DNA of 64,000 bases. Origin: Bilabrum cf. latius. Its lineage: Eukaryota. Under the pieces are notes generated by a model. That model did no database searches and was not told the origin of the DNA. It saw nothing but the letters and a program-made list of their open reading frames with translations. Of the stretch, positions 2,959 to 53,430 are shown one piece after another. The DNA lies in contig OZ237739.1 of the NCBI GenBank assembly GCA_965178125.1, forward strand, positions 806,001-870,000, read 5' to 3'. The position numbers and the translations under genes are program-made. How positions within the stretch are numbered: the first letter of the stretch is position 1; every line of letters begins with the position of its first letter.

Positions 2959-3071
2959 ATCTATGGCCCACTGCTGCAAGATATGTGTACACGCCTGCGT
3001 TGGTGACGTCAAGTGGAGCAACGCCGCGCAATTCGAGTTCCGCCGAGCGCGACGGCGGTTGGCAACGCCAG

Positions 3072-5408: not shown

Positions 5409-5673
5409 CCTGCTTGAAAGACTGCACAATGTGTCTAAAGCAGAATAAGCTCGCTCCACAGTTCGATCATCAACAAAAGGTTCGATAAGGTATACACAGC
5501 TCGAGCTTAGACCTGACCTACTGTAGCTGTGATGCACAGTACGGGACACAATGTCTAAATCAGCCTGTTGCACTGCTCACACCAGCAAAGCTGCGGAGCA
5601 GCTGCCGCCGGTGATTGCGCGGCGCCGGTGATGGCCGAGTTCACCCGTGAAACCAGCGGAATAAACAACAAGC

Positions 5674-24100: not shown

Positions 24101-25195
24101 GCTTTTGGTGCGGTCCCCGCGGGATCGATTCCGGGCGTCCACCCGCCTGCTAGCGACGCTGCCCTTCGGCAACTGGCCTTCGACGCGGGCGTGCTTGGTC
24201 TGGTGCTCGGCGGCGGGAGGGGCCGCTCGGGTGCCGGTGCGGTCGGTGATCTCTGGGCGGGGCAGGGGAGCTGGGAACCCTCCAGGCTGCGGGCGACGGC
24301 TGCCTCCCTCGCTGCGGGCGGTACGGTGGCAGGGGCAGGAGTGAGCGCTGTGATTCGATCCATAGCCAGCGCGACAGGGGCGCACGTGGGCTCTCGGGGG
24401 GTGGCCGGAGCCGGGGCTGCCGCATCACCTGGACCCAGCAAGGGTACTGCCACTGGGGCGTCGGCAGGCGAGGCACTGGTGCGCGCACTGCGAGTCGTGG
24501 CCAGCTTGGAATAGGCATTGCGTCCAGGGAACAACGGGGGCCCGCTGGACGCTGCCCTGGCCTGGGCCGGAGTAGGTGCTGGCGCTTCATCAGATTCAAG
24601 CGACTCGGCAGTTGGGTCGTGCGCCCGCACGGAGGTTGCCCTGGTGGATCTGCTGGACCCTGTGGACTGGTCGCTGGCCGCGGATGCCACGGTGGACTCG
24701 CAGCACGCCTGTGCCGCCTCCGTGCTAGCCCGCAGTGCAATGCAGGTTCCGCTGCTCGGAGCGGCGGGCATGGTGAGGGTGCGGCAGGTGGCGGCGGGCA
24801 GGCACAACAAGAGGTGGGCCGCCGCCAGGACTGTGCCCCGGGCGCTGTTTGGGTCGGGGGTGGGAGGTGCGGCCGCCTAGAGCAGCGCCCCGGCGGTGAC
24901 CGTGCGTGGCCTGGGCGCGTCTAAGCGGGCCCTGCCAGTCGCGGTGGCGGTGGGACTTGCGGAGAGCGGGGCGAGGGATCTCGGCGGGGAGGAAGTCGCT
25001 GGTGGGAATGGATCTGGAGATGCAGGCGCAGGAGGTGCGGAGGAACAGGCGGGCGGGGGCAAGTTAGGGGCCGGCGGATCGTCGTCTGGCGGGCTCGTTG
25101 TGGGGGCGGGCCAGGAGCACCCTGGTGGCAAGCACACGAGCCAGAGCTCCCTCGGCTCCATGTTCGGAGGAATGGCGTCGTCCTTGTTCGGATGA
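21146..25195 (+). CDS. COG1: COG1-like (Vps51/Vps67 family) Golgi tethering subunit, about 1349 aa
   Basis: A single frame across 10 TAGs (21221, 21353, 21995, 22418, 22421, 22634, 23093, 23282, 24512, 24878). N-terminal DTLFSQRPVAEIRE and C-terminal LRQLAFD and LLDPVDW motifs resemble COG1. Ends in TGA. Confidence 0.65.
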
Positions 25196-26806: not shown

Positions 26807-28237
26807 TCATCGGCGGCCCTCCACGGAGCCACCAACGCCCACCTGCACCCGCGGAGCATTCCCCGTGGCCTGCGCTTGCCCCAGCCCAGCCACCGTCACT
26901 GGCACAGGGAGCGCAGCCTGCAGCGAGCTGCCTTCGCCTGAGCCAGATGCAGTGCTGCTGCTGCTACTGCTGCTCGCTGCACCAGCGGTCAATCTAGCCG
27001 CTGCACCCGTCGCATCCCCATGGAAGGGGTTGCTGTCCCCCTGTCCCTGTCCCTGTCCCTGTCCCTCCCCGTCCTCTGGCCTCCCCAGGAGGTCCATGGT
27101 CCACTCGTACACGAGGAAGGTGACCGCATTTGAGGGGATGGCTCGTAGCACGGTGGGTCCGATCCCACGGAAGAACGCCATGGGCCCGTGCTACGTGTAG
27201 AGGCGCCTGGCCACCGCCGTTGCGGTCGCTTCGTGGTAGGGGGTGCTCTTGGGGAGCGTCTGGCAAGCTGTCTTGACCACATCCACAGGGTATGTGACAG
27301 TCCAGGTGGCAACTCCTGCGGCCGCCCCTGCTGCCATGAGAACCCAAGGCTGGTCCGTGCCTTCCTTGGCAGCTCGTACCTGCGAGGCCGTGGCGCCCGG
27401 TGCGATCACGGGAGGTCCCGCCATGGACACGTGCAGCCGTCCTAGCATCTCTTTGGCCTTTTCGTAGGCGATAAAGTAGGCAGCGAAGGACGGAATGTCG
27501 CGAAGCACGGTGGCCCACCACCCTCGAAATAGGCCCATTCTCCACCCGTGTGCCTGCACAAGCTCTCTTGCCACCTGTACTGCACCAGGGGTGGGCCCAG
27601 TCCCGTGGTGCACCTGCTGCCGCACCTTGATCAGCTCCATCGGTACCGTGATTGCGCACTGGAGCAACCCGCTCCAGCCCCCAGCAATGGTGAGCTTCAA
27701 CAAATCCTTATTTCCAGCCTTCTCGGCCTCTGTTTTACCCATTGAGGAATCCAACGTGCGGAGCGCATGGCCGTACGAAGCGAACAGGACTGCATTCAAC
27801 GGCGCATTGAACACCAACGGCGCCGCCAATCCTTTAAACAGGGCACTTGGCTGCGATAAGCAAGTAATCGGATGAATGGTTAAGTGATTATCCATAAAGT
27901 ACCGCAAAACGAGCCAAACGGAAAGAAAGCAGCCAGTTTGACTTACACCTTCTTTGACTGTGATCTGTCTCAGGCAGTCTACCGAGCCTCGATACAAGTG
28001 CGATGTACGCTCAGATTGCAACCTAACTTTAACAGTATCTAGAGGCTGCGATTGTGAAATACAATTCCAGTGATGACTACTAGTTGAACGTGTGAGCAAC
28101 CCGAAAAAACTCTCGGCATTTCGAAAGAGACCCAATCGAGACTGCTGCACTCCACTCACTTGCCCGACAACGATCCCCGCGCAACCACCAAATGTCCCAG
28201 CAGTTAGCTCTTTGATGATGTTCATTGCATCATCCAT
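26807..28237 (-). CDS. Mitochondrial carrier (SLC25A29/A20-like) with introns 28046-28159 and 27851-27946
   Basis: Three PX[D/E]XXK signatures (PLDTVK, PMELIK, PVDVVK). The last helix FFRGIGPTVLRAIPSNAVTFLVYE lies beyond the TAG at 27191. Ends in TGA. Confidence 0.9.
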
Positions 28238-28618
28238 GGCCCCCCGGTGGGCGCACTCTCGCAACTACCGAGCGGGGGACAAACGACGGTGCAATCTGGC
28301 TCCGAATCATGGCGAATCCGAGTGCACCTCGAGTTTATTGCTATGTGCGTAGCTAAATGAAGGCTGCCAAGCGGACCCACACATTTCCATTGGAAAGTTC
28401 GAGGGTAAGACTGCATGGTCAGGTATCCACGGTTCATACGGCCGCGTGATTTTCAACAGAGGGCCCGATGGTCACCACGCCGCTGGAAGTGCATGCCGGA
28501 TAACACATGGAGCACATATCTACCAAAATGCATTCTATCTATTCATTAGCGCCGAGCCGAGTCGATCAGCCCGTCAATGCTCGCTGTCCCCTGTGCACTG
28601 CGGGCCCTTTTCTACCCA

Positions 28619-29353
28619 TCACGAGCGACCCTGGTCATCCTCGCCTGATTGGCCCTGCACTCCGGAGCCAAATATTCGGCGAGCCGCAGGGGCTTCCCCC
28701 ACAGTCCCGCTCGCACCACTTCTGCCCTGCTGCTAGGTGCCAGCACTGCCGTCGCCGCTGGAATTGCCGCTTGCCGCAACGGCACGCTCCCAAGCGCCCG
28801 GCAGAGATGCCTCGTTGCCACGATTCGGCCGAGCACGGGTCTCCTCGTCCTTGCTGTTTGCTCTGTACCTCTCGTATAAATCCATGCCGACAAGCAGCAT
28901 GAACAGCGGAATGGTGCTGCCTCGCTGGGCTGCAGGCAGCAGTCGGGTGCTTGCTACGAACGGCAACAATGCAACGCCGCCTGAAATTAAGGCCGCCTCA
29001 TAACTTTTCGAAGTTGGATGGAAGAATCTGAAGTTCTCCATCACACCAAGGCCAATCTAGTACACCCCGAAGAATCCCATGCAAGTGAACCCCTTGCGAA
29101 GAACTCTTCGTACCGCCACCATCCCAGCACGCCGCATATCTGGACTTTCTCTTCGTATTTTGGCAAAATCAGAGAATACCTCGACTGCCCCGACGCTGCT
29201 CCCCATTATAAGCCCACCAAGGAATCCTAGCGCAAGTCTGCGAGACACACCTTCTAGCAAAGACATTGGTTTCACTTTTTCGTGGCGGATTCTTTGCAGT
29301 GCTTTCCATTCATTGTTCTTCAGCTTGTTTGATTCCACGTCCGGTTTTGCCAT
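28619..29353 (-). CDS. Small membrane protein, possibly Tim17/Tim22/Tim23-family-like
   Basis: Glycine-zipper transmembrane segments (GFLGGLIMGSSVG, MGFFGVY*IGLG, ALISGGVA). Joined via TAGs at 29057 and 28733. Ends in TGA. Confidence 0.55.
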
Positions 29354-29491
29354 AGCTGGCCTAAAATGTACAAAACAGTGGTCTGTGTATCGTAGTTTTT
29401 CCGGTTTAGTTTAGGACCCAGAGCTCGCGCTAGCGAGCTATCATTCTGGCAAGTTGGAAGAGACTCGAGTAAATTTTGCTTTGTTGTTTGT

Positions 29492-30133
29492 ATGGCAGCT
29501 GCATCTTCCGAGAAAACGACGGAAATGAGCAGTCCTCCGAAGGCAAAGGACACCGCTATTCCAATTACGCCAGAATTCCTTGCCATACTTGTACCAGACT
29601 CAAAAAGCCAATGGGTTGACTCAATCCGGAAACTCATGGAGTCGTTTCGAAAGCTTTTGTCGTCGAAAGGTGTCGATATCAGCGATTTCTAGGCATTCGA
29701 GGAGGAAATGGAAGGGCTGCCAGGCAAATACTCGGATCTTCACGGCGGGGAGCTGTTTGCGATCCTCCAGGTCCCAAGTAGATCTACTGCAGGAGACGAT
29801 AAGTCAAAGATGGGCGATGTCTGCGAACTTCGTGAATTATCATTGCCCGATGAGGCGATTGGTTGCATTGCATTTCGAAAACATGACGAGGAAACTGCTG
29901 AAATGAAGCGCATGTTCGTTACAGACAAATGCAGAGGCATGGGCCTCGGCTAGTCGATAGGCAAATTCATTATGGATAGAGCAAAACTGGCCGGCTACAA
30001 ACGAATGGTGCTGGACACGCTTGAGCGACTGCCTGGCGCAGTCAAAACTTATGAAAAACTTGGTTTTAGCAGAACCTCCTCTTATGTATACAATCCGATG
30101 AAAGACGCTATTTACATGAAAATTGACTTGTGA
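29492..30133 (+). CDS. GNAT-family N-acetyltransferase of bacterial type
   Basis: Motifs DISDF*AFEEEMEGLPGKY, IGCIAFR..AEMKRMFV..CRGMGLG*, GYKRMVLDTLERLPGAVKTYEKLGF..YNP. TAGs at 29690 and 29951. Ends in TGA. Confidence 0.88.
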
Positions 30134-30503
30134 ATTTACCCCCTGTACATTCATTCATTAGTCTTTGTGTTGTTAAACAAGATTACAAAGGAGCAAATGC
30201 ACGAACTTCTAATGCTTACAAGATCGCGTACATCACAGAGTCTACATGTAAGGCTTGGTTTGAGGGGTCGGCGTTAGGAAAGGTCAGGTATGCTTGGCTT
30301 AGTACCCAAACATTGATGACTAGAGAAATCATCAGCCAGATTGGATTCAAGGAATATTTATTTGGAATTTCAAACTCCTTTGACTTGAATTTGCTCCACC
30401 AAGTTGAAACTTCATGGTCAGACTCAAGTCATACAAGTCCCACTTTACGGATGGGTGCCGAATGATATAATGCTCAATAAGGAATGCATTCGTGCACGCC
30501 GTA

Positions 30504-31004
30504 TAGTACAAAGCAACACGATCCGTTAAGCTATGATATGATGTATGCATAACCATGACTTGAATCTGAACCAAGTATTAACTTGGTGGAGACCACAAAT
30601 GAAAAGGTACGCTCAGTGAATCGCATCTTCAGCCCAAACGGATCATGCATCCCTAATAGCTTGGGTACTTAACAGTATTGAAAAGCCCAAAACCGTAAAC
30701 ACAAGGAGCTTCAAGTGCCTTTGTATGCGCACACTATGAGACCCAATGAGCTATAGGCCAACCGACATGACTTATAACCACGACAATATCCATCTATCGG
30801 TTTCGTATACCACAGCTGTACATGCACACTCTATAATGTTTATCAACGGAGAGGATATCTGGTGTACAAAGCAATTATGTGAAAGCTCGCATTTATTTAT
30901 GTTGGATTGAGTTGATTGATTAAACTACTACACTTATGGGGTTGCAAAATGCAGCGATTCCAGTTCAATCCTTATAGCTTTACGGATCGTGTTGCTTTGT
31001 ACTA
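30504..31004. mobile_element. MITE-like non-autonomous element with 30-bp terminal inverted repeats bounded by TA
   Basis: TAGTACAAAGCAACACGATCCGTTAAGCTA (30504-30533) versus TAGCTTTACGGATCGTGTTGCTTTGTACTA (30975-31004), one mismatch. The interior is AT-rich and non-coding. Confidence 0.6.
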
Positions 31005-31182
31005 GATACTCGCAAGCGATAGATGGTTTGATAATGTCGTGCTTCTTTCGTCCTATCAAATTTGATTTGTATTCATCGGATCAAGCAATTATGTGAAAGC
31101 TCGCATTTATTCATGTTGGATTGAGTTGATTGATTAAACTACTACACTTATGGGTTGCAAAATGCAGCGATTCCAGTTCAAT
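30869..31182. repeat. About 100-bp near-perfect direct repeat (30869-30969 and 31083-31182)
   Basis: AAGCAATTATGTGAAAGCTCGCATTTATT...GCGATTCCAGTTCAAT occurs twice, differing by about one substitution and one indel. Confidence 0.92.
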
Positions 31183-31214
31183 ACTTATGAGTATATCAAA
31201 CACACTCCACTATT

Positions 31215-32753
31215 TCATGACATTGCCCGATCTTCCCAATCTTGAATCCAGAAATCAGATGTGTACGGGGTTCCTCGGTCTGGCCAGTTTGCATTATCTG
31301 GAGGGTGGAACCAATAGTTCAATGCCATATGATACTACCCATCTGAAGAGGAACTCCATACGCAGTGGTACCACCCTGCTGGGATAAACAAGCAGTTGCC
31401 TTTGCTAAGCGTGACAACTCTAAAAGGTACGTTCCTTTCTTTCAACTAGTGCCCATCAATATCGACATCTAAATTGGAGAAATTGTCCGGATCTTGCTTC
31501 TACTCATGTGAACTCTTTTCTCTTAATGACTCGCCAACACCAGGACTCTCATCACCATCTCCATCGCTAGCTTCTGCATCAAGTGCTTCCAAATCTAGTG
31601 CAGCCTCCATGGCACAATCGAGCTCCATTTCAGCCTCCTCTAGCATCTTCTGCTTCGATTCACAGTGAGCTTCACTGAGTTCTGACTCGATCTTTGATAT
31701 TCTTGCTTCTATCTCTCGAATGGCAATTGCTGCAGCCTATGCCTAGCGGGCCTCAGCGGTTGAGCCATCAGCAAATGCTACAGGCTGGCTCTCGTAGCAT
31801 ATTCTGCCGTTCGAATGCATCTTGGAAATTCTTCCAACTGGCTTTAACATCGAACCGTAGCCGGGAGGAATTAGGAGGATGTGCTTTTCTCCTTCTAGTA
31901 AACAATAGATGTTGTCATGGTAGTCATGATGGAGACCGCTGCAAGTTGGCGACACAGATGCTCCCATCCAGATGTTAATATTGGCCGGTATGAGACCACC
32001 AGCAAGTCGTGGTCGAATAGGAAAATCTTCAATTAGCGCATCCACTAGCTGCCCAAACAATGCGGGTCGACCCTCTTCATCCAATGGAATTGATTGCGTA
32101 CTCATGTATAGCCCAAGGCCAGGACCATCTCCCTTGCTATCGTTGCGATGCTTGTCGACAATCTGCTTGATTCCAGACACGACACGTTTGAAGGGTACCT
32201 CAACTTCGATTCCTTTCCCGAATGATCGCTTCGTTGACGTTTCACGAACAACTGGCCTGGATGCCTCCGACGAGGAAGATGGCGATGATGCTACTGCACA
32301 GCCACTGCTACTAGCAGCCGATGCAGCGGAGCTTGCGGATGACCCCGTCGAGCCGGAACCACCCACAGCACCGCCAGTGCCTTGATCCTCTGCAGTGGAA
32401 TCATCAGGCAGAGGGCTCTGAGTCTCAATTTTCACGGCAACATCACCAGCTTTCGACTCCAGATAGTCTAAAGTCCACTTATGGCCTGCAGTAAATGTGG
32501 TATCGTCCAGTAGCCCTCGAATCATAGCTGGCCTCCTGGCAGCAACGAATCGCTTGCAGAATGTTTCGGTGCGAATTGTGGACGCAACCTCCGGGACTTC
32601 AAAAGACTTCGGGGTAAGAGCTTCGCTGGCCTCGGTGTCGCGTGAGATACTGCTGGAAGCTGGCGCACCAGATACTTCCAGTCGCTGCTTCTTGTCTGAT
32701 GGCGCCCCCTCGGATTCCGGCTGCGTCTCAGCTGCTCTTTTCACACCAGCCAT
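31215..32753 (-). CDS. JmjC/cupin-8 2-oxoglutarate/Fe(II) dioxygenase
   Basis: NIWMG..SGLHHDYHDNIYCLLEGEK. The C-terminal LFIPAGWYH..HMALNYWFHPPD (third metal ligand) is reached only through TAGs at 31743, 31737, 31500 and 31446, with another at 31335. Ends in TGA. Confidence 0.88.
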
Positions 32754-33722
32754 TGCTGCGAATAAAAACACGAAAATATATTTCGAAACATGTACTGTGA
32801 AGCCGACCTGTTCATGTTCACTTCGATACTGGTGGCCAACAGCAGTTGGATGCTTGCAAATTCTTCATACACATTTCCGATATATAGAGTTTGTCTTCCG
32901 CGTTGGGTATTCCAACTTCAGACGAACGAGACTATGGTGTAATCATAAGAATAATAGCAGGGAAGTACGGCGACATATTCGCCTAAAATCCCCCGGCGCT
33001 CGCCGCAACGTCGTCGGTGAACAGCAACGTTTAAATCGAACATATCACAACTATTCTGTTGTCCAATCTTAATCTCACTTGTCAAAATGAAGAATAAATT
33101 GGTAAGTGTGTAGTTTTCTGGTCTACTTGGACAGTTTGTGCACAGGTAGGGGGGTACTTGAACCAATGTGCAGAAAATGGTGGATCGCAAGCCAGCCGAC
33201 ATTTCCGGTCTAGCCACAGCCGAGCACGGGGACGAGACATTCGCTGAGCTCGTGCTCCCAGCTAGCTGGCCCCGTTGGGGACAGAACCGGGACATAGGTA
33301 ATTGAGGGAAGGTTCGGCTCGGCTCGATAATTATAACGCCAATTGTTTTGTTCCGCAACCAAGCTTGTCAGTGGAAGGCCGAAAGGCCGCTCGCTGTTGG
33401 ACTGAGACAGCCCCACCCCAAAGGCTACAACCGGTGTCCTGCAGATCATACATTGTCGCACATAATATAATGGAGGCATTTGCAAGCTAATGCAGCTAGG
33501 TGGCCCCAGAGAATCGAATTGAAGTGGCCGGGTCAACAATCGAGCAGGTAGTATGCAACTGAGCAACGCAACAGACCAAACCATACTGTATACGTGTGCT
33601 GCCGAATAGCAGCAGCAAGTGTACAATGGTCACAGCAATTTCAATTGGCTCGTTTGGAAGTATGGGCTTCATGCGGCGCGAACATAAGTGCGGCTGCAAT
33701 GCAAAAAGTGCCGGCATCTCTA

Positions 33723-34291
33723 TCAGGATGGCTGACCCTTCTTGGATCCAGATTTGTTGCCTTTACTCCCCCCTTTCCCTGACCTCGAGCCATCTGATTT
33801 CCCCCCCTTCTTCTATTGCTTCGCTTTCTTGCTCTTGCCCTTGTCGTCGTCGACTTCATCGGAATCATCCTCCCCGAGGTAGTACGCACGGTCGGCGTCT
33901 GGCAGTTCGCTCACGAACTTCCTGTCCTCAGAGGAATACATCGGATAGTCAGGGAGAGACACCTGCGGAATCATATCAGAAAAGCGCGAAACATTGATAT
34001 TCGGCGGCCATGGAACCCGCTTGACAACAGCAAGTATTTACTGCATTATAGTCTTACTAAAAAAGCTATCGCCATCGTTCCTACCCATCCATACAATGTA
34101 ACAACAAAATTGGATTGGACGTATCCGGCCAGGAATGACACTGACTGCGGAAACAGAAATCAACGTGGAGGGCAAATACGGTCTTAAACCATACGGCATC
34201 TAAACTCGACACGCCACGATAATCCCACCGTTCCTACTACAATTATAATCATATATAGCCATTCAGCAAGTTTTTGTCCGGTGAAATCCAT
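33723..34291 (-). CDS. SPCS1: Signal peptidase complex subunit 1 (SPC12); introns 34145-34228 and 33963-34057
   Basis: MDFTGQKLAE N-terminus, two transmembrane segments (..VSFLAGYVQSNF..) and VSLPDYP. One TAG in the basic tail. Ends in TGA. Confidence 0.8.
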
Positions 34292-34447
34292 GTTTGGTCT
34301 TTGTTGCTGGCCAATGGCCATCCAATGGACTTCATCGTGCAATGCAGCTTCAGGAAGACTGTTGCGTGCTATTATCCGATATAACTTGCTTGAAACTGGC
34401 CGCCAACTGCGTTTGGCATCCTGCACTGAGTCCTTACATTTTTCACG

Positions 34448-36287
34448 ATGGCTGGGGCTCCTGTGATGGTTGTTGGTCCATAGACAAAGCGCCAAACTGG
34501 CAGGGAGGCGTAGTTGGGCAACATTGCCGCTGCGAAGGTGAGCTATTCGAAATGCTGCCACGAAATACTGAGCCGCTGCCCGCGTAGCTCAACACTGCTT
34601 TACTGGGCGGCCTTACCATGTACATCTGCAGGCCATTGCTGACGTTGTTCGCTCTAGCTTGGGGCCGAAGAGCATGCTCAAAATGTTGCTCGACCCCATG
34701 GGAGGCATTGTTATCACGAACGATGGAAGGGCAATCCTGCGCGAGCTGGATGTGTCTCATCCCGCTTGTCACAGCATGATTGAATTGTCGCGAGCCTAGG
34801 ACGAAGAAGTAGGCGATGGGACTACCTCTGTTGTGGTTCTTGGTGAGAGCAGCATCGCCTCGCCTGCCGACCTCGAGTCCTTCAACAGTCGGTACTGGCC
34901 CGTATGCGTGCCTTGCAGCACCTGGACTTTTGGTTCTCCTCAACGATGATACATTATCCTTTCTTGCGCAGCTGGCGAGCTGCTGACTGTCGCTGAGCCC
35001 TTCCTGCTGCGAAAAATGCACCCAACAGTGATCTGCAACGCGTACAGCCGGGCGCTCGAGGCCTCCCTCGAGGTGTGCGAGAGCCTTGCCGTGGTCGTGG
35101 ACCCAGAGAACAGGGAACAAATGCGTGACCTGGTTCGGTCGAGCATCGGCACCAAGTTTGTCTCCCGCTACGGCGACCTCATGGCGGACCTCGCCATCGA
35201 CGCGGTGCTGACGGTGAGGCAGGAGGAGGGCGGCCGCACCGAGATCGACCTGAAGAGGTTCGCGCGCGTGGAGCGGATCCCCGGCGGTGAGATGAGCGAG
35301 TGCCGCGTGCTAGACGGCGTGATGGTTAACAAGGATGTGACGAACGCCCGCATGAAGAGGAAGATCGAGAACCCCCGGGTGGTGCTGCTCGACTGCCCGC
35401 TCGAGTACAAAAAGATGGAGAGCGGAGCCCAGCTGGAGCTGACCAAGGAGGAGGACTTCGAGGCCATCCTAAAGATGGAGGAGGATTTCATTCAGAAGGC
35501 ATGCGCGGACATCATCGCGCTCAAGCCCGACGTGATTTTCACGGAAAAGGGCATCGCTGACCTCGCGCAGCACTACTTCGTCAAGCACGGGATCACCGCC
35601 ATCCGCAGGATCCGCAAGATGGACAACGACCGCATCTCGCGTGCCACTGGGGCCACGATCGTGCACCGCACCGACGAGTTGACGGAGGACGACGTAGGCA
35701 CCAAGTGCGGCCTGTTCGAGGTGCGCAAGCTCGGGGACGAATACTTCACTTTCTTGGAGAAGTGCAAGGACCCCAAGGCATGCACGATCATGCTGAGGGG
35801 AGGCTCCAAGGACGTGCTCAACGAGCTGGAGCGCAACCTGCAGGACGCCATGCAGGTGGCCCGCAACATCATCATCGAGCCCAAGCTGCTCCCCGGCGGG
35901 GGTGCCACGGAGATGGCCATCTCCGTCGCGCTGGCAGAGAAGGCGCGCGCCATCAAGGGCGTGGAGCAGTGGCCCTTCAAGGCCGTGGGCGTGGCCCTGG
36001 AGGTCGTGCCCAGGACGCTGGCGCAGAACTGCGGCGCGGACGTGGTGCGCCTCATGACTGAGCTCAGGGCGGCCAAGGCCGGCAAGGGGTCCTCCATGCT
36101 GGGCGTGGACGGGAACAGGGGCGTGCTCGCCGATATGGGGGATCTTGGGGTCTGGGATGCTTTCTCGGTTAAGACGCAGACACTCAAGACCGCCGTGGAG
36201 CAGGCTACCATGCTGCTGCGCATCGATGACATCGTGAGCGGGGGCAAGAAGAAGCAGCAGGGTGGGATGATTGCCCCGGAGGAATGA
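34448..36287 (+). CDS. CCT3: Chaperonin CCT/TRiC gamma subunit; introns 34538-34631 and 34843-34971
   Basis: MAGAPVMVVGP*TKRQTGREA*LGNIAAAK / AIADVVRSSLGPKSMLKMLLDPMGGIVITNDG..SMIELSRA*DEEVGDGTTSVVVL / AGE..., followed by the canonical CCT3 body. Ends in TGA. Confidence 0.97.
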
Positions 36288-36379
36288 ATTTTCCGTGAAC
36301 AAGCCATACAAGCAATGACTAGCCATTCAAAATCTATCAATATCGCTTGGAAAGCACGGCAATTATTTGTATTCCTTGT

Positions 36380-36907
36380 TCAGAACTGCCCCTGACGGCG
36401 TGACCACCCGAGCGCCGACACAACACCTAAAATAATTCCAAGGACCACAAATACCAAAGAAATGCCCGATATTATCTGGTCCAATCGCAGTACGTAAGTC
36501 TGCAGCTGCAAGAAGTACGAATAGGCGATTATCAGCGGCAGAGCAAACAGCACTCCAACGAAGACCGCGTTGGCACTCTCGGTCTTGTTTCCATATGAAC
36601 TAATCCTGCACCGTGCTAACTCCGTAATTCCCGTCGCAAACACCAAAAAAGCCTCCCATCCCAAGCTGCCTCGCGGATCTGGCAAAACGAGGCCTGCGGT
36701 GTAGAGTGGCCACTGTCCTTCAGTCCCTGCTGGTCGGAAAAGGCATCGCGGACGACAAATCGAATCAACATGGTAAGCACATACAACTGTCTCACTTTTA
36801 TACACCATGCCAGCCAGGGTTAGCACGAAAAATATCAACGCGTACCACTGAGACATATACAGGGATATTTCGAACCAAAGGTTGCTTCCCAGAGCGCTTC
36901 GGGCCAT
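36380..36907 (-). CDS. TMEM216/TMEM17-family ciliary transition-zone membrane protein (probable intron 36694-36795)
   Basis: LGSNLWFEISLY, ELARCRISSYGNKTE and LQTYVLRLD are typical of the Transmemb_17 family. Confidence 0.8.
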   Translation of the reverse strand: MARSALGSNLWFEISLYMSQWYALIFFVLTLAGMVYKSETVVCAYHVDSICRPRCLFRPAGTEGQWPLYTAGLVLPDPRGSLGWEAFLVFATGITELARCRISSYGNKTESANAVFVGVLFALPLIIAYSYFLQLQTYVLRLDQIISGISLVFVVLGIILGVVSALGWSRRQGQF

Positions 36908-37088
36908 GTTGGTCACAAGATACTTTACTACCAGAAAGATATCTTGCTAAGTGCAGTCAGGCGGTAGACAATCTCGAGATTCACGTAAATGTGCGATTTC
37001 AACCGCTTTGAAGCACTTCTGAGAATTCATCTTCACCAATGGCTCGGCACATTGCCTCGGTTCGTAGCGACTACAAAGGCTGCTCAGG

Positions 37089-39842
37089 TCATCTGCTGCC
37101 AGGCAAGCACGCTCCATCCACCATGAGCACCCTTACGGAATACGCCGGCACCGTCACATTCGCAGCTGTGGGCAGGCTCTCCCACGAGCGCACCTGCCTG
37201 CCCTTGAGATCCACCAGGCTGACGGAGCAACCAGCGGCTGCATCTGCAGCTAAATGTGCCAATGTGTGCTACGGTTGTTCCTCTACCAGCACACCAGGCG
37301 CTCTCAGGTCGCGGGCCCACGCCCCTGCGGACTCCGCCACCCACACGGTCGCATTTGAGGTCGAGTTGCCGTCGGCGCTGGCCAGCACCACCGCCACGTC
37401 ACCTGAGTCATCCCTGCGGAACGTCCCCACGGAGAGGGCGGGAAATGACCACTCCTTCTGCGTGGCAGTGCCGTTGGAGCCGCGAGCAGGCACGGTGGAT
37501 CGGATCGTGGGGCCATCCACCCGTGGATTCCTCATCGCGCGACCCCTCGCCAAGTAGGCAGCGAACTGGGGCAAGGCCCCGGCGAGAGAGAAGAACGCCC
37601 GGCTCACCTCTTTGGTCCAGGCGGTCTGCCCGTGCAGGGGCCCGGGGTGCACGTCTGCGTCGAATGGCACGGGCAGCAACCCCCTCGCCACCGCGTTGGC
37701 GATCACTTTGGCCCGGACGGGGACACCCGGCCTCGACCCTCCCCCTTGCCCCTGGCCCTGCACGAGCGCAGCAGCCATGGCCGTCACCCTCTCGTGATGC
37801 ACGAAGGAGAACCCCCCGACGGCCCGCCCCATGCCCAGCCCCCAGCCCACCTCCCCGAACTGCCTCGACCAGAACGAAGCGAACCTAGAGGCCATCAGCT
37901 CGCTGCACTGCTCCGAGAGCAGCCCAACGGGCCGCCCCGCCGCGGCTGCCTGTTCCTTAACCTCGTCCACCACGTCTCGGATGCCCTCCCACATCCACCT
38001 GCCGAACCCCGGCGGGTGCCCGTGCGACTCATTGTAGCAGGGGTGCGCCTGCCCCGCGCCGATCTCCTGGTCGAACGAGACCAGAGGCACTCCACCGGTG
38101 GACGACGCGGACGGCGATCCGGAGAACCCGGGCGCGTGCCCCGCGAGAGCATTTCTCAGGTTGCCGTTGACGGACGTGAGTATGTCAACCATTGTCCTGC
38201 TGGCGTTGGCCTGCCCGTGGCACAGCTTGTGCGACAGGCCCCTCCAGGCCTGGCCGCAGTTGGGTACCCCGTAGCAATCCACCTCGAAGAGGGTCCCATT
38301 TCTGGTGGTCACCAGCATGTCGCTCAGCTGGGGCACAAGGCTAGAGTGGTCAAAGGCGGGCCCCCCACCGCTTGCCTCCCTTTTGACCACCCACCAGTAC
38401 CCAGACACGAGGAAGCCAACGCCGTCCCCGTGCCCTCGGAGCGAGTCCACGACGCTCATCCAGTCCTCAGCGGACGGCAATGGGGGCAGGTAGAATATCC
38501 CTGCCCATACACCGTCCTTCTCCCAGCCGTAAGGGATCGTGAACACCGGCGGCCCGCCCTGCATCCCGGTGGCAACGGAAAGGTTGGCCTTGTACTGCTG
38601 CATGTACCCCGGCAACTCCTCCAGATGAGGCCCGAATTTGCTGGGGTTAAAGCCGCCTTCCAGCTAGATCGCTGATATGAGTCCCAGCGCCCCTTGTTTT
38701 AAGAAGCCCGGCACGTCTTGCCTCTGAAGTAGCGTGCTTGTGCCGTTGAGCACGCCAGCGGACTCGGACCAGTCCCTGTACAGCGCTGCTGCGTCTTGCC
38801 AGCTGGGACTCAGCCTGATACCGGCAGCGCTCTTTAGTCCGGTACTATTCGGCTGGATCTAGAGCGGCTCCTGCAGAGTGTCCTGGCCTGCTTCGGGCCC
38901 TTGATACACCGCGAGCCCCACGGCGTACGGCAGGCTCATGCTCTGACCAGGTTCCAAGGGGACTTCCGGCCGCATGTGGGTGAAAGAGAGCAGGGCGGAT
39001 GGAGGCGTCGCATCGGGAACAGAGAGTCCCAGTGCCAGTGCCGCTGACCGTCCTTGACCTACTTGCTACTTGGCCCCCGGCCCGACTGCCAGCGTCATGG
39101 TCTTGACCTCGCCTGCCGTGTCTAGAGAAGCTGCCATGATTCCGCGCTGCCCGCTGTGGTGCGTCATGAACTGCATTGGGCACTGGCCCGGATAGATCCT
39201 TTCGCTGAATTGCAGCTGCGCAACCGAGGCATCAAGCAAGAAACCTCCGTCGCAGCTGGTAAACCCGGCGATCTCAGGGTCGTAGCTAGGCCCTCTAGAC
39301 GGATCTCGACTTGCGGTGACGTTCAAGTTTGATGCAAAGTTGGGCCATTGGATCGATGCGACCCGAATCGTCGCATTGTTATCAACATCTGCCTTGCGGG
39401 AGACTGCGATGGTTCCAGCGACCATGCCAAGCGAGTTGCGCCAGTACTGTACTTGCACTCCGATTCCAGCTGAACCCGGGGGGAAATAACACTTTGCTAA
39501 ATCGGCATTTGTGTACGATATGCTGATCCGGGAGCAGTTCTCAGGTGTTCCAACGACGCATGCTGAAGAGATCTGCCTGAAGCAGTGGGGCTGTACCGCA
39601 GCCATCGTAACATTTTCCGGCCACTATGATAGCATGAGCACAAATTCTCGATCGTATCCATTCTGTGATACTGATATGTGTTGCAGATCGCTGTTGCATG
39701 AGTCGACAACCTGAACTTGTCCTTGAGTGTCAACCGAAAGTGTCGCTGTACATGTCAAGCCGAGGCGGTCGCCGCTCCCAAACTACAGCTGTACCGCGGT
39801 AGCATAGCAAACGAGAGGAATGGTCAGACAGCACAATCGCAT
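37089..39842 (-). CDS. Secreted DUF6259-like putative glycoside hydrolase, about 917 aa
   Basis: Signal-peptide-like MRLCCLTIPLVCYATA. One frame across about 6 TAGs. Motifs IYPGQCPMQFM, WQDAAALYRDW, YGWEKDGVW..YLPP, SFDQEIG..CYNESHGHPPGFG and LSEQCSE recall bacterial DUF6259 proteins. Ends in TGA. Confidence 0.6.
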
Positions 39843-40537
39843 TCTTTCTGTGTCGGGAGAGAGCGATAAATTTGTGTGATTCAAACTACACGCTACGTTG
39901 GTGAGGCCAACGAGTGAAGGCAGCAGGCTGGGGGCCTGTGGGGGACCACACTGATGGCGAAGAATGGGAACTCGGCGGCATAGGCTGAGAACGGGGGGCC
40001 TTTGGCCTGAAAGGGTCGGGGGTCTTGTAGTCCTTTGTTTTTAGGGCTCCTCTGGATCTAGGTGATCACCCAAACCCCCTCGGGGGCGACGGTGCATCTG
40101 GGTGCTTATGGAATCTTTACCCAACAATGTATTTCTGTATTTCTGTACGAGGTCTCTGACATTGAGGTCGCACGTTGGGCGCGGTACCTGCTCGAGGCGC
40201 AGGATCAGATGCGACGCAGCGAAGCGGGAGAGGGGGCGGTCGAGGAGGCCAGGTCAGTCAGGAACGAGCAGGAGCAGCGACTAGGGGTGGGGCGAGGAGG
40301 GACAAGGGCGGAGTAGGGAGGGGTGACGGTTCACCAAGTGGGTGGAGGAATAGTGGAGGAAATGATTGGTGCTAGTGGCGTCATCTGGTTGATACGGTGG
40401 ATTGGCAGGGAGTTCGGCGGCAATCAAGCCGCACGCTATTCGGGCGCTGAGGAGCAGTACTTCCGACTTCAGTGTCTTCGTAGCAACTATCGATCTTTAG
40501 GTGGAAGCTGCGGAGCGTAATTGAGTAGCTTGCTGTG

Positions 40538-43500
40538 TTACTTATGCAGCTACACTGTTCCAACACCGCCCACGGTATCTGCCAGGATCGCCATGTCGGT
40601 GACGGGCTGCGCCGAGTCCATCACCCTTACAGCCACGTCCTCCTGAAACGACACTCGCCTCGTCAGCGCGCCGCTCGAGCGGTGCAGGGTGTCTTCGTCA
40701 GTACCGCCTTCTGCCTCCACGAGCGGCCCAGACCCCGACATATCCGGTCCATCCCACGCTTCCCAATCAGGGTGCGCGGTGAGGTTGCCGCCGCTACTGG
40801 CAGCCACTCCCGATTCAGCGGGGTCTGATGGCGTGCATACATCTACAGCGTGCCCATCCTGGTGCATGCAAGCTGTTTCATGCGTATGAGACCCATCTCT
40901 TGTTTTCTCAATAGCATCTGTGCATCTATCCCGATCCCCAACTTCTCCTCCCTGCACTGCCTCACCAGCAGCGATCCCCAGCACCATCTCCTCTAGTGGT
41001 ACGCCGCCAGTAAGCAGTTCTGCAGACCCGCTCCGCCCGTGCCTTGCGCGGCTCGGTGCCGTAGACGGCCCAAGCTCTGGACTCAAGCGCGGGCTAATCT
41101 GCTGAGGGCGAAGGGATCGGCCAGCCAGAGCTGCGATCGCAGAAGATACGACATCGTCGTCCCCGCGGACGCCCGGTGACCCGACCTCGAAGACGCCCAC
41201 AGCCTGCGCGCTGCTGCGAGGGGCCCTCACAGGGACGGGAACCTGCAAAGATCCCGTGGAGCCGCGCCGCTCCTTGCCCCCCGATCGCGCGCGAGTGAGG
41301 CTGAACGCCTGAGAACCCGTGGGGCCGGTGCCAGGTGCAGCCCCTATCTGCCTGGGCGAGTCCAGCGCAGTTCCATCCGGGCTGGTGCCATCACGGAGCC
41401 TGGTCCAAGCGATCAAAGGCGAGCTGCTGGAGCCGACTCCGCGGGTCAAGTGTGCATCAGGAGCAGGAACTAGAGATCTGGGTGCGAACGCTTGCTGAGA
41501 CAGACTGTCGATACCTGCTGGAGCAGCGGCAGCCTCGATACCGCCGAGCGCCACAGCCCTAGGTACAGCATTCTCGCAGGCAACCATTCCCAAGTTCGAG
41601 ATTTCCTTAGACTTTGCGTAATCGAGCAGGCCGTAGTCGTTCACGTCTGGGCGAACGTACACGAACCTGCCGCCGAATCCATCCTTGCCAGCTCGGTCCA
41701 GCAGCTGCTTGATGTGCATCGTGTGGCTGATGTACGACAGCGAGAGCGAGACGTGCGACGTGCTGGGCAGCTGCACGGGTGGAGCCAGCCCCACTGTCGA
41801 CATGATCCAGCGCATGAGCACCCACCACCCGGAGATGCTGTCACCGTAGTCTGGAAACGAGTGCAGCAGGGGGTTGATCTTGCTCTCAACGTCAACGGCT
41901 ACCACAGACCGGATCTGCGGGCATACCACGCCAATGACGTCCACTGGGAGGTTGTTGCAGTAGCCTCCATCCACCAGCAGGTTCTGCCCGTTCGCGCTCT
42001 TGATTGGGGGCAGCAGCCCAATGATGGTCATCGAAGCCCGCACGTACCGCCACAGCGGGCCCGTGCGGTGCACTTCCATGCGGCTGCGAGTCACGTTAGT
42101 GCTGATGCAAAAGTAGTTGATCCAGAGGTCCTCAATCTGCGAGCCAAAGCCCATGGCATCCTGGATAGCCTCGTTGAAGGAGGCCCCATCAAAATACGAC
42201 AGCAAGGGAAGCGTCGCGCTCTGCAGCAACTAAAGCGGGTCTCCGATGGCGCCTGCCAGTCGGCCCGCAGCCACTTCAACGCCCTCGATGGACTGCGTGA
42301 GGCACCATGCAGCGCCCATGAAGGCGCCCTACGAAGTGCCCCCCACCGCGTCGATCGGAATTCCCTGCCTCTGCAGGGCCTTCATCACGCCCATGTGGGC
42401 CAGGCCACGAGCACCTCCTCCGCCAAGTACGAGCGCCACCGCCTTGCCAGACACTAGTCGCGCGAGCCTCGCGTAATCCGATAGCTCCTCCTCCCTGATG
42501 TGGTGATGATACTGCACCTGCCGCTGTCGGAGCCACTTCCTAGTCTGCTTGGGCACTACCGTGCCTGGAGGATGCAGCAGCACCAGCTCAACGCGGACTC
42601 CCCGGTGCATTGCATCATGTGGTTGCTTGCTGGGACTCTGGCGGCGAGGCGAGCCTGCGGAACCGCTAGCATAGCCTTGGTGCGAGGCACCAGACAAGCC
42701 GGATGATCGCCACAGGGACGACCCCTCCGGTCCCAGGCTGGAAGCCGCAGGCCCGGGGACGTGCAGCACGCTCGCCGCGAGCCGCACACCTTCTGCTGCT
42801 GCCTGTACGGCAGTTCGTCCGATTCGATCCACAGCCCGCCCAAAGTCAGAGTCTGGACCTCGAGCCAGCCTCCCGCTGTCGCTTGTGCCGTGTGCAAGAC
42901 CGTCATCCTCTCCAGCACCTCCGAAGACGCACACTTCTTCCACGGCCGATAGCTGGGCTTCTCGCTCCGCTTTCTCCTCCTCGCCCACGCCCTAACCGAC
43001 GCACAGAACCAAGTCGGCCTGGCTGCAGCACAGGCGCTGCCAGGGAGAGACGTACCCGGGGCCCCTGGCTCGATGGACAGCGTCGTCGGAGTCTGCAACC
43101 AGCAGCACAAACCTGTGGGACTCCTCGGCCTCCCCAATTACCGTGGTAGCTCGAGATCGTCGAACGTGCCAGCTCTCGGCGCGTCGCAGGCTGGGAGGCA
43201 CCCCGAGGGCAGCAGCGCTCGCATCCGGCATGGCGATCCTCGACGTCAGGATACACACCACAGGGTGCCAGTCTCCCACTGTTGGTGCTGCGTTTGCGCC
43301 CTGTGCGTGGAATTCAGCTCCAAATGAATGCGAGTGGGAATTGTACTTGTCTCGCCTGACTGCAAAAGAGGTTGCGTGGGCCAGAGAGCCGCTGGCCCGG
43401 CCCGGTGAATCGGCCGAAGCAGCCAGGCCGTGCTGCTGCCACGGCAGCTGAGACAACCTCTGCCCATGCGAGCCAGAGAATTTTGACCCAAGGCCTACTG

Positions 43501-46500
43501 ACCCCGTGGGAGAAGCATCGTGCCAGGGGCTCTAAGTCGCATCCCTGCCACCGCTCCACGAAAAACCTACTCCCGCCTGTGGTGAAACCCCTCCACCGTG
43601 CAGGACCTGCAGCTAGGCAGCCAGCCGCAGGGCAAACTGCTGCAAATCCACCGCGCCCGGTTGCCTACCAGCAGATACTATGGCAATGGTGCGATTCCGG
43701 CTGCTGCTCAGCTTTGGCAGCTTGTTTACGCCCACCGCTCCAGAGAACAGCATGGAGGAGACTGCAGGTCCCACTCCGAGGATTGAAATCAACGATGACT
43801 CCTCGCCCCGACTGGTTTCTTGCCCCCCGCCGCCCTGTACGGCCATCTAGCTGCTGCCAATCAAACTATCCGGCGTGCCGCGAGAAGCGGTTCGCGGTGC
43901 TACGGGTGCTGCTGCCTCTGCCGACGCCGTCGACTACCCTGAAGACGACGCCATCATTCGCCGTGCTAGCGACCGGGCTGCGTGGGCCAGTGCAAGCGGA
44001 CTCTTATTGACGATTCGCTTGAACGCCGCCACTGACACCATGACCAGCTCGCAGTCTCGTACGCAAACCGCAGTCGAGCTACGCACGGGTACGTTCTACG
44101 GTCCCAGCGGTGCCAGCAGATCCACGCTGCCACGGGCGGCACCAGCTGCATCGGACGACGCAGCAGTGGCTGCTCCAATCTGCGATAGCACGGCCGCTTC
44201 GCCAAATGTGTCACCCCTCTGGGCATCCCACGAGTCTCCGCCTGCGTGGTCCAGGACGGACTTGGAATCGTTTTGCGCCTGCAGCCTCACCCGTCCATTT
44301 ACCACGATAAAGAATGCCATGGCTGGATCTCCGGGACGGAAAAGAACCTGTCCCGACCGCAGCCACAGTCGCTATAGCCCACATGATAGGAATCGCCGCA
44401 GCAGCGGGGTAAGTAGACGAGCAGCCCTGCCGCACACAAGGGCGAGAGCAACCGAATGCACCGATGCGTGCTGGTCCATGAGCGCGATGGATGCCTGATG
44501 CTCCTGCTCGCTCCCATCCTCAGTGTCAGACTCTCGCTTGGCAGTAGTGGCCTGCCCTAGTTCACCGGTGCTAGCCTACCTATCGTCGTTCTCCCAACTG
44601 CGCTTGCGTTGCGGAGGAGCACCATCTGCCATGGTGGACGCGAGCTCCAGCAGCATACGGGGAAACACTGCAACTTCGGTCTGCTTGCATGCCGTCGCGC
44701 TGTGGTCATGCTTCCTTCGAGACAAGCAAGCAACACCACCGACAATGTCGCCGACAGCGCAGAACCGCTGCAGACACCGCCGGGACAACCGAGCTAGCAC
44801 CTGCTCTGGCCCTTCACCAACCCCGATCTGCTCAGACATTGAGCTGCTGAGGCCGCGTGCCTAGTCACTGCCATCGATGTCGTAGCCGAAGCTTTCGTCT
44901 TCCATGGGTTCAGAGAAAGCGGTGGCACGCCCATCGCCTCTAGTAGCACTAGACATGCCCGCGGCCTGGGCCACGAGCTCTGAATGCCGCTGCTCCCAAC
45001 CTTGTGGCGAATGGCCTGACCAGCACAAGACAGACCCACTCACCACGACGTACACACAGTCTGCTGGGTCACCCTCCTGGAATAGTTGGTCCCCGGGCTG
45101 AAGCTAGATTCGTCTCCAAGCTGCTTTCACTACCTGCTCAAAGTTGCCAGGCTCGCTGTCAGGATCAACCCAGCACGCGGCTCTTGCAGGGTCTTGCAAA
45201 CCAACAGAAACGTGCTCCGCAGCACCTTCTGCTGCACCACTTGGCCTTTCAAGTATACCTCCAGTGCTACTACTTGCATTGTTTTCATCCGCGCTGCTGC
45301 TACGCCTTCGACCCGGCGGTCTGACCCCCTGGGGTGCTGCTTGCGTGCCTGCCGGAGCTTCGTCTGGGGCTGCCAAAGCAAGAGATTCACCGCGTTCGGC
45401 TATACTCTCCAGGCCCCATCCTGATAGCCACGCCTGCTTGGAAGGCGGCTCAATGGCGAGTGGGAGCGCCGCCTCGGGGTGCAGGTGTTCCCCCAGCGCG
45501 AACCGAGCAACCTTCCACTGCCTAGCCGTCGTGTGCAGCACGAACGAGACCATCTGACCAGGCCGGTTTCGCAGCAGCCAATGCAGCGTGGTGAAGTCTA
45601 TCTTCAAGATGCTTGACCTGCGTCGAATCACCCGAGCGGACACGCGCCATGTTTCCCCGGGTCCAGCCAGCAGGGCGTTCTCTCCGAGAGTCTGGCCGCT
45701 GCCGAAGATGCACAATGGCTACCTCTGCCCCAATGCTCTACCCATGGCATCGCTGTCCGCTACAGGCTCGTACACACCAACGAGTCCATCAACTACAATA
45801 TACATACCAACCGATTTGGTTTCTCCCGCCCGGAAGAGCCACTACCCTGGCATCAGGTGCAGCTGCTCGCTATGCTGGAAGATGGCTTCGGCCGCAGACG
45901 CACTCAGCCCATGGATTGTGCGCTGTAGTCGCCGCAATAGCCGCTAAACAGTCTTATCTGCTTCGAATCCTGACTACCGCCGCCGAGGTGAGGCGCTTGC
46001 ACCTTCCTCCTACGCTCGCAGCAGCGAGGGGTGCTGGCCGGCACTCGCGGCCTGCCCCGTGCCCGTCTAGCTCACAGACTGAACCCACTACCCTGCTGCA
46101 GCTCCCGCCCCTGTGCCCTCCTCCACCTCTCTGTCGTCTCCGCCATGGCCGCCTACTTCTTCCTCTTCATCCTCCCCATCGCTGTCCGACCCCTGCTCGT
46201 CATCTGAGACAAGATCTTCGTCCTCCCCGTCCTTAACTCCGGTCCCGCCTTCCTTGTCCGCATCTCCGTGCTGGTCACCGCCCGCGTCCCCGTGATCGGA
46301 TTCTGGTAGCAGCAACTTACCCCCGAACTGCCCCGAACGCTTCGATGAGTCGCCTCGCCTGCGATGCTTCGCCGAAACCTCCAAATCGCTACTAGAACTG
46401 GCGTCGCGGTCGAGAGGCGAGCCGTCGCGCGCTGGTCCCTCGGCAACTTGGCTCGGACCGTCAGGACTATCCTCGGTGTGCCGAGCAGGGTACGCATCCA

Positions 46501-46534
46501 AGACATCATCAGGCTACAGTTCGGCGCCATACAT
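40538..46534 (-). CDS. NTE1: Neuropathy target esterase / NTE1 (PNPLA6/7) lysophospholipase: cNMP-binding domains plus patatin, about 2000 aa, intronless
   Basis: All minus-strand ORF fragments from 46534 to 40550 share one frame separated only by TAG. Three cNMP-like segments, then [17 protein letters not shown] and LVDGGY patatin motifs. Ends TAG-CTG-CAT-AAG-TAA. Start uncertain. Confidence 0.88.
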
Positions 46535-47363
46535 GAGCCACCTCTGCGGCAGGGGGACAGTAACGATTCGGAAGCAAAACTCTCTGTGTGAAGCAGTGGG
46601 CTTGTTTGGCTTGCATCATATTCTGCAATTTAGCTTACAGCAAGAAGTCGGACGCGACGTGAATATCGGAATCCAAAATACGCCATCGCTGCAAGGAGAA
46701 TGTATGAGAATCTGCTCTTTCGTAAAACCCAGACCATTCCGCCCAGTCCCGGGACGGAATCAAGCTTGTCGGCAAGAAATAGTCGCGCAGAACGCCGTGG
46801 GATGCCCCGCTATCTACGTTGCCTGCGTTGAAAAGGAATATTTAATGCGCCTATGCAGAATCCATCGCAAGTGCTAGACGCAACGTTGTCAAGGCTGGAC
46901 GCAGTCCACTTGGCCATTTCAAACTTCAAATTCTCACCAATCTCTCGTCAGCGCAACGCCGATCAATAAGGCACCCAAGCCAATCACTGCAGCTCGTGCA
47001 ACATTCTGCCGAGAGGCCGAGGACGAATCCATACCACTAGAATCGATCCAAATTGACGTATGAAATACGGCTAGCCAGCAACTACTTAACAGTAGTACGT
47101 TGAACCACAGAGATGCAAACTAGCAAGCCTAGACTCTGTGGTGCAAGTCTCAAAGTCGAATTTTGACGAACCTTTCAATCCGAGCCAAAGGAACGTTCAT
47201 TGCATCACAAACATCAACTTCAGAACTTGGGTTATATTTCCCGTATTTCACATGATACACTCCCAAATCCTTAAATTCTAAGGTCAAAATGCTAGTGATG
47301 AGCTGTTGAGGGGAATATTTCCATGAATTTCCCACTTTAACTGAGCTAGGCAGGAGCCAAATT

Positions 47364-53326: not shown

Positions 53327-53430
53327 GAATGTCCCAGAGCGTCGTTCATGAAATAGCAGCGCAGATGACGAGCGCAAAGCTGCATCGGCGAGCATGCATG
53401 CAAAGTGGTTGCCAGATTTAGTTTTGTCAA

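Follow-up and report, generated by a model that had tools for sequence, protein, structure and literature searches.

UAG very likely read as glutamine, with UAA and UGA kept as stops, in CCT3 and neighbouring genes of a GC-rich, intron-poor eukaryote

A stretch of 64,000 nucleotides of contig OZ237739.1 (assembly GCA_965178125.1, filed under Bilabrum cf. latius; positions 806,001 to 870,000 of the forward strand), here called the window, harbours on its + strand, at 34448-36287, a gene that its sequence identifies as CCT3, encoding the CCT gamma subunit (TCP-1/cpn60 family, PF00118). The gene consists of three exons separated by two introns, holds 538 sense codons and ends with a TGA stop at 36285-36287. 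Its reading frame contains three TAG codons, and it is the meaning of these codons, and of TAG in the other genes of the window, that is the subject here. The features of the gene are the following.

34448..34537, + strand: CCT3 exon 1, 30 codons beginning with the ATG at 34448; TAG forms codons 12 and 22
34481..34483, + strand: TAG at codon 12; Asn in 53 of 71 homologues, Gln in 3
34511..34513, + strand: TAG at codon 22; Gln in all 71 of the homologues that have a residue here
34538..34631, + strand: CCT3 intron 1, 94 nucleotides (nt), GTGAGC..CAG, phase 0; removed in contigs of the public runs X7 and X9
34632..34842, + strand: CCT3 exon 2, 211 nt; TAG forms codon 86
34797..34799, + strand: TAG at codon 86, within the motif SRA-TAG-DEEVGDGTTS; Gln in all 75 of the homologues that have a residue here
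34843..34971, + strand: CCT3 intron 2, 129 nt, GTGAGA..CAG, phase 1; removed in the X7 and X9 contigs
34972..36287, + strand: CCT3 exon 3, no TAG; glutamine encoded by 12 CAG and 1 CAA; GC content at third codon positions (GC3) about 0.89

Both introns run from GT to AG, and after their removal all three TAGs lie in frame with the ATG at 34448. These are the only stop-type codons inside the spliced frame, in which TGA and TAA do not occur. An intact gene is expected to have no in-frame stops, so that three TAGs accompanied by no TGA or TAA do not form a chance pattern. Neither frameshifts nor damaged splice sites are present, which together with the strength of the exon 3 match given below bears out the claim of the initial annotation that the remainder of CCT3 is undamaged. 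GC3 is 0.59 in the first 300 nt of the gene and 0.89 beyond.

The assignment to CCT gamma is based on phmmer searches of PDB, in which exon 3 (34974-36284) matched CCT gamma with an E-value of 2.9e-171. Of the other eukaryotic CCT subunits epsilon came closest, at about 1e-63, and the thermosomes of archaea lay in between (about 1e-86 to 1e-90), while exon 2 matched CCT gamma at 2.4e-31 and others at about 1e-20. In the CCT gamma chains of yeast and mammals TAG86 is matched by the Q of SRTQDEEVGDGTT, and the nucleotide-binding motif is complete as SRA-TAG-DEEVGDGTTSVVVL, every residue fitting when TAG is read as Q. The exon 1 alignment, with an E-value of 0.02 that is weak because this exon contributes only 30 residues, pairs TAG22 with the Q of GRKVQSGNI and TAG12 with an N. 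The protein is full length, 58-72% identical to protist and animal orthologues, and carries the invariant motifs together with PF00118 matches.

A wider comparison was made with 76 of 120 retrieved homologues, kept if they were 515-600 amino acids (aa) long and started with M. The column of codon 86 contained Q in 75 and a gap in 1, and that of codon 22 contained Q in 71 and a gap in 5, while the column of codon 12 was made up of N 53, T 5, S 4, Q 3, G 3, one each of K, A and E, and 5 gaps. The spliced translation, aligned with CCT3 orthologues in the way that the initial annotation had proposed as a check, thus puts two TAGs on invariant glutamines. The codon at 34797-34799, which had been assigned to the Q of a chaperonin motif, and the one at 34511-34513, assigned to the Q of a GRxAQxGNI-type motif, are both where they were said to be. 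The third TAG, at 34481, is present and in frame as described but does not serve as a glutamine anchor, its homologues having mostly Asn. By this alignment two of the three CCT3 TAGs are clean glutamine anchors and the third occupies a variable site.

The occurrence of TAG inside genes extends over the whole window. Frames that read through TAG are very long (2,025, 1,760, 1,408 and 1,349 codons among others), and 10 of the 18 frames searched contain Pfam domains: cNMP-binding with NTE P-loop and patatin; SprT/Spartan; ABC membrane with ABC_tran; Dus; DUF6259; GTP_EFTU (HBS1-like); Cupin_8/JmjC; MFS; mitochondrial carrier (Mito_carr); and animal haem peroxidase (An_peroxidase). Codons were counted from the first ATG in 13 genes (12,930 codons, window 3072-61202), and in these frames, which are themselves delimited by TAA and TGA, there were 87 TAG, 426 CAG, 114 CAA, 0 TAA and 0 TGA, with TAG making up about 14% of the glutamine codons. 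The two other frames of the same genes contained TAA 35 and 47 times, TAG 125 and 96 times and TGA 195 and 246 times. Twelve of the 13 genes terminate in TGA and one, the NTE gene, in TAA. Pfam-named members of this set that contain TAG are CCT3, NTE, ABC, Dus, SprT, HBS1 and MFS, and NCBI table 15 translates the genes of the window without breaks. The 21 TAGs carried by a single gene indicate that UAG is decoded efficiently as glutamine. Four of the genes that enter the argument below, besides CCT3, are these.

40538..46615, - strand: NTE/patatin-type phospholipase gene (cNMP-binding, NTE P-loop and patatin domains), 2,025 codons, 21 TAG, TAA end
37089..40040, - strand: DUF6259-domain gene, 6 TAG; 23 in its orthologue on metagenome contig L001
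58836..61202, + strand: HBS1-like GTPase gene; a TAG in the G domain (VDVGMG-TAG-MRIKG) is Q in the public protein P0265
5665..8055, + strand: ABCB6/ATM1-like half-transporter gene, 2 TAG, TGA end

The NTE frame ends at 40538-40552 (- strand) with ..GTV-TAG-LHK-TAA, a TAG lying four codons ahead of the TAA, and as its C-terminus is not conserved with a relative the true end of this gene is uncertain. Four further TAG-bearing frames have no Pfam match (47310-51536, 53329-58611 and 21146-25195 on the + strand and 61359-63998 on the - strand); they span 879-1,760 codons with 6-14 TAG each, and are probably lineage-specific or fast-evolving genes.

The amino acid encoded by TAG can be approached through a relative. 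The metagenome contig L001 is syntenic with 34968-42217 of the window, comprising CCT3 exon 3, a small gene, the DUF6259 gene and the C-terminus of NTE. The contig breaks off 45 nt before exon 3 begins, and the comparison accordingly excludes exons 1-2 and the three CCT3 TAG positions. Exon 3 of CCT3 is 94% identical at the amino acid level between the two, while identity is 52-57% in the two TAG-bearing pairs, where L001 has 23 in-frame TAGs in the DUF6259 orthologue (2392-5361, - strand) and 8 in the NTE orthologue (5591-7354, - strand). The three orthologue pairs together provide 33 sites at which a TAG of one sequence is aligned to a sense codon of the other. That codon is CAG at 12 of the 33, the other partners being S at 5 sites, K at 4, G and R at 3 each, A at 2, and Y, E, M and P at 1 each; in the same alignments ordinary glutamines are kept at 49%. 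Where at least 6 of the 11 flanking residues are identical, CAG is the partner at 7 of 9 sites. In a likelihood model built from the substitution counts of the alignments themselves, glutamine obtained a log-likelihood of -77.9 and the runner-up, serine, -107.1, a gap of about 29, and neither leucine nor glutamate was among the best eight. TAG use in L001 is far above that in the window (23 vs 6 in DUF6259) and its GC3 is lower (0.55-0.58 vs 0.65-0.72); the frequency of TAG seems to rise with AT pressure.

Other public sequences show a similar exchange. An HBS1 orthologue that is 95% identical and lies on another public contig (P0265) reads VDVGMGQMRIKG where the window has VDVGMG-TAG-MRIKG. 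Two CCT3 protein calls from one contig of a close relative (P0123 and P0124) end and restart around the window's ERNL-Q391-DAMQV, with P0123 stopping just before Gln391, as would be expected if Gln391 were encoded by TAG in that relative. P0121 and P0145 begin at points compatible with a TAG further upstream, but its position cannot be read from them, and these two calls were not used. As a positive control, 4 of 80 metagenome CCT3 loci (L021, L028, L031 and L058) have TAA at both of positions 22 and 86, and contain many further in-frame TAA and TAG codons, several of them opposite glutamine, in the pattern of ciliate-type codes. The two TAGs of the ABC transporter and the one of HBS1 fall in columns that vary among distant homologues and are uninformative on the amino acid. 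Among the other metagenome CCT3 loci there are some in which TAA and TAG are mainly opposite glutamine (L021, L023, L028, L031, L048, L058, L065) and a larger set in which they are mainly opposite glutamate (L029-L047, L057, L059, L063); these look like ciliate-type users of UAR as Gln and as Glu, respectively.

From these data we consider it very likely that the window belongs to a GC-rich, intron-poor eukaryote whose nuclear code reads UAG as glutamine and has UAA and UGA as stops, following the scheme of NCBI table 15. UGA is kept as a terminator, and UAA very probably is as well. The earlier proposal that TAG stands for glutamine is thereby upheld by the two invariant sites, the spliced form of CCT3, the 13 genes and the exchange between TAG and CAG. 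On this basis CCT3 at this locus would supply the organism's functional CCT gamma, with the three TAGs serving as ordinary glutamine codons. For the decoding, we infer a tRNA-Gln(CUA), one mutation away from the CUG form, which would read UAG but not UAA, and an eRF1 that would have lost recognition of UAG while retaining that of UAA and UGA. These components agree with what is described for such codes: in Panek et al. 2017 (PMC5304391) a reading of UAG without UAA is said to need a CUA anticodon, which tRNA-Gln(CUG) can reach by one mutation, and changes in eRF1 are expected since it must drop UAG recognition; the eRF1 of Iotanema is reported there to carry T32G in the GTS motif.

Several observations weigh against this reading. 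The 64-kb window contains no tRNA gene by ARAGORN or Rfam, and no RNA gene was found by either; eRF1 is likewise not encoded there. Some TAGs are at non-glutamine sites, as with codon 12 of CCT3, which is mostly Asn in homologues, and one TAG of the ABC transporter, which lies opposite an Arg of ABCB6 adjacent to an alignment gap. That TAA and TGA do not occur in frame follows in part from the way the frames were delimited, by those very codons; the argument rests on the length and domain content of the frames. TAA as a terminator is represented by one gene, NTE, the C-terminus of which is not conserved with the relative. The spliced form of CCT3 comes from runs whose type is a guess only ("RNA?" for the pair, with X7 also marked "probably DNA"), and transcription is inferred from the splicing. 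Finally, the glutamine identity of TAG comes from sequence comparison.

The alternative given the highest, though still low, probability is that UAA and UAG both encode glutamine, as in NCBI table 6 (ciliates, Dasycladales, hexamitids), and that TAA is rare merely through the high GC content. UAA and UAG are usually reassigned together in the cases treated in PMC5304391 and PMC11687900, and this possibility would agree with the prevalence of TGA, which ends 12 of the 13 genes where TAA ends one, and with the unconserved C-terminus of that one gene. It is, however, hard to reconcile with the codon counts. If TAA stood to CAA as TAG stands to CAG, about 23 in-frame TAAs would be expected in the 12,930 codons, and there are none beside the 87 TAGs, so that TAG alone appears reassigned; yet TAA does occur off frame, 35 and 47 times. 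When TGA was tried as the only stop, the confident genes crossed TAA solely at their extreme ends, passing into untranslated regions (UTRs) or neighbouring genes. In this one 64-kb window TAA appears not to be a sense codon, and a table 6 code is considered improbable.

The distribution of TAG along genes raises a second alternative. In the 13 genes, TAG occurs 27 times in the first fifth (GC3 0.58), 9 times in the fourth (GC3 0.72) and 12 times in the last (GC3 0.70), and the relative positions of TAG and CAR differ (Mann-Whitney p = 0.005). CAA shows the same trend towards the 5' end. [quoted passage not shown] On the other hand, up to 21 TAGs per gene and 87 in 13 genes mean that decoding must be efficient, and the frames of CCT3, ABC and HBS1 continue to a TGA, have homologous C-termini and lack TAG in their end regions. 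The 5' bias also parallels the dip in GC3 (0.58 vs about 0.70) and the greater use of CAA, which indicates a mutational cause. A leaky code is for these reasons judged slightly less probable even than a table 6 code. The simplest reading of the 5' bias is local C-to-T pressure on CAG, although a translational cause is possible. Under UAG as an ordinary glutamine codon, C-to-T mutation pressure would convert CAG to TAG mostly in the GC-poorer 5' parts of genes, and would explain why all three TAGs of CCT3 are within its first 86 codons.

The base composition of the window is otherwise uneven. Its GC content averages about 60%, its introns are few, short and of the GT-AG type, and its proteins have Ala/Gly/Ser-rich inserts. 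Positions 28001-34000, bordering the 5' end of CCT3, are GC-poor (43-52% vs about 60-72% elsewhere), and the Cupin_8/JmjC gene within them has a GC3 of 0.45 and 5 TAGs in 549 codons.

Four public runs from four studies were compared with the window over 34300-36400, and no base difference was found in any of them. Two of these runs, X1 and X5, contain CCT3 in its unspliced genomic form. A contig of 1,676 nt from X7 (covering 34426-36324) and one of 1,670 nt from X9 (34426-36318), belonging to two studies, have both introns cut exactly (94 and 129 nt, GT..AG) and keep all three TAGs. This spliced form argues against an untranscribed pseudogene as well as against RNA editing, and the initial annotation, which had named an untranscribed locus, together with a second, TAG-free CCT3 copy, among the findings that would overturn its proposal, agrees with the data as regards transcription, inasmuch as splicing in two runs of two studies speaks for it. 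The spliced contigs begin 22 nt upstream of the ATG and stop 31-37 nt downstream of the TGA; they have the look of contigs derived from mRNA and, if full length, hint at very short UTRs. The same region is near-identical (77-100% of sampled words) in runs X1-X9, which represent four organism codes and four studies, and the organism may thus be a companion or a contaminant of others that were cultured or sampled.

A decaying pseudogene, or C-to-T damage resembling repeat-induced point mutation (RIP) spreading from the GC-poor region at 28-34 kb, would turn the TAGs into real premature stops. CAG indeed becomes TAG by one C-to-T change, and the three TAGs are located in the GC-poorer 5' part of CCT3 (GC3 0.59 vs 0.89) beside a region of 43-52% GC. 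Decay of this kind is contradicted by the lack of any frameshift, TGA or TAA, by the intact splice sites and the spliced form in two runs, by the same use of TAG in 12 other genes over 64 kb, and by the presence of TAG in the orthologous locus of the relative, where the proteins are conserved. The idea was dropped in view of the use of TAG throughout the window and in the relative; its probability is negligible, the CCT3 locus is not a pseudogene, and the earlier statement that pseudogenisation is implausible is well founded in the intact frame, the spliced form and the 12 further TAG-using genes. Conversion of TAG to CAG before translation by U-to-C editing, or its creation by sequencing error, has nothing direct in its favour, being a formal possibility for any in-frame stop, and is equally negligible given four runs of four studies, two of them spliced, without a differing base.

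With regard to the identity of the organism, among named sequences the CCT3 of Cafeteria roenbergensis, a stramenopile, matches best (71%), and those of Phytophthora, Hondaea, Rhizochromulina and brown algae, likewise stramenopiles, are 61-65% identical. A maximum-likelihood tree was calculated from 118 rows, the window and 117 of the 120 homologues, P0002, P0006 and P0021 having been left out as over-long or of low quality. In this tree the window is paired with P0001, on long branches, and the pair groups with Cafeteria plus P0004 and with P0005 plus P0041 (SH-aLRT 91), and this group is placed in a starred clade of 31 mostly environmental sequences in which Cafeteria is the sole named anchor. 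This single-gene tree suggests that the organism is probably a heterotrophic stramenopile near the bicosoecids. Searches with the ABC transporter and HBS1 gave no lineage signal, their best matches being scattered or about 30% identical. The CCT3 of another metagenome contig, L002 (67% identity), contains no in-frame stop, which fits a reassignment confined to the lineage of the window and L001.

The code proposed here can be compared with those already known. According to PMC5304391 and PMC11687900, UAG alone has changed to glutamine in Iotanema spirale (Fornicata), Protocruzia tuzeti and two lineages of phyllopharyngean ciliates, and UAG alone is reported in PMC11687900 to encode Leu in the rhizarian exLh, Ser in Scotinosphaera and Glu in an oligohymenophorean ciliate. 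Both UAR codons mean glutamine in ulvophyte green algae (Dasycladales, Cladophorales and Trentepohliales), in many ciliates, and in hexamitid diplomonads, Streblomastix and Amoeboaphelidium (PMC11687900, PMC5304391). The window resembles Iotanema, Protocruzia and the phyllopharyngeans, as these cases are presented in the two papers, in that UAG is glutamine and UAA, kept as a stop in those cases, very probably is one here too. It differs from Iotanema in its main terminator, UGA in 12 of 13 genes, where UAA is the dominant stop in Iotanema according to PMC5304391, and from all the UAG-only glutamine codes in a host lineage near the stramenopile Cafeteria, the available portions of PMC5304391 and PMC11687900 containing no stramenopile case. 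With the UAR codes it shares the change from stop to glutamine, which the ciliate-type loci L021, L028, L031 and L058 display at Gln22 and Gln86 of CCT3 itself; unlike them, since they use TAA too, the window has 0 in-frame TAA in 12,930 codons against 87 TAG. As in the codes with UAG for Leu, Ser or Glu in PMC11687900, UAG alone changes its meaning and UAA has a different one, but the amino acid is here glutamine according to the likelihoods given above (-77.9 vs -107.1 for Ser, with Leu and Glu outside the top eight). Relative to eukaryotic CCT gamma nothing functional stands out, and the difference is restricted to the codons for three residues.

A full-text literature search, PMC11412368 included, brought up no stramenopile with a variant nuclear code in the texts it covered, with subscription-only papers and supplements lying outside it. 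The code is thus of an already-known kind, the table 15 type, and the window is probably its first stramenopile example. The further proposal of an independent and so far unreported change of UAG to glutamine, with UAA kept as a stop, in a stramenopile near the bicosoecids whose lineage is in the middle of a TAG expansion, is offered tentatively, as one nearly as likely to hold as to fail. The notion of an ongoing expansion derives from the share of TAG among glutamine codons (about 14%), its roughly fourfold use in one orthologue from a relative of lower GC content and its enrichment in the 5' fifth of genes.

Public protein calls are truncated or split at TAG in this lineage (P0001, P0122, P0123, P0124 and P0145): CCT3 calls begin at MHPTV, inside exon 3, or are interrupted at Gln391, and the ABC call begins at Met191. 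Annotation by the standard or bacterial code is thus wrong for the lineage, and its genomes, along with matching metagenome contigs, need table 15.

UAG-only changes of the nuclear code are rare, a handful of cases being listed in PMC11687900, and each new lineage of this kind puts to the test ideas on why UAA and UAG tend to change in tandem and on the joint evolution of eRF1 and tRNA-Gln. If the reading proposed here is true, the stramenopiles would have their first nuclear code variant here and, should the stramenopile placement hold, variant nuclear codes would reach another major eukaryotic group. The lineage would then offer a natural system for the study of codon capture under mutation pressure, possibly with residual competition from eRF1.

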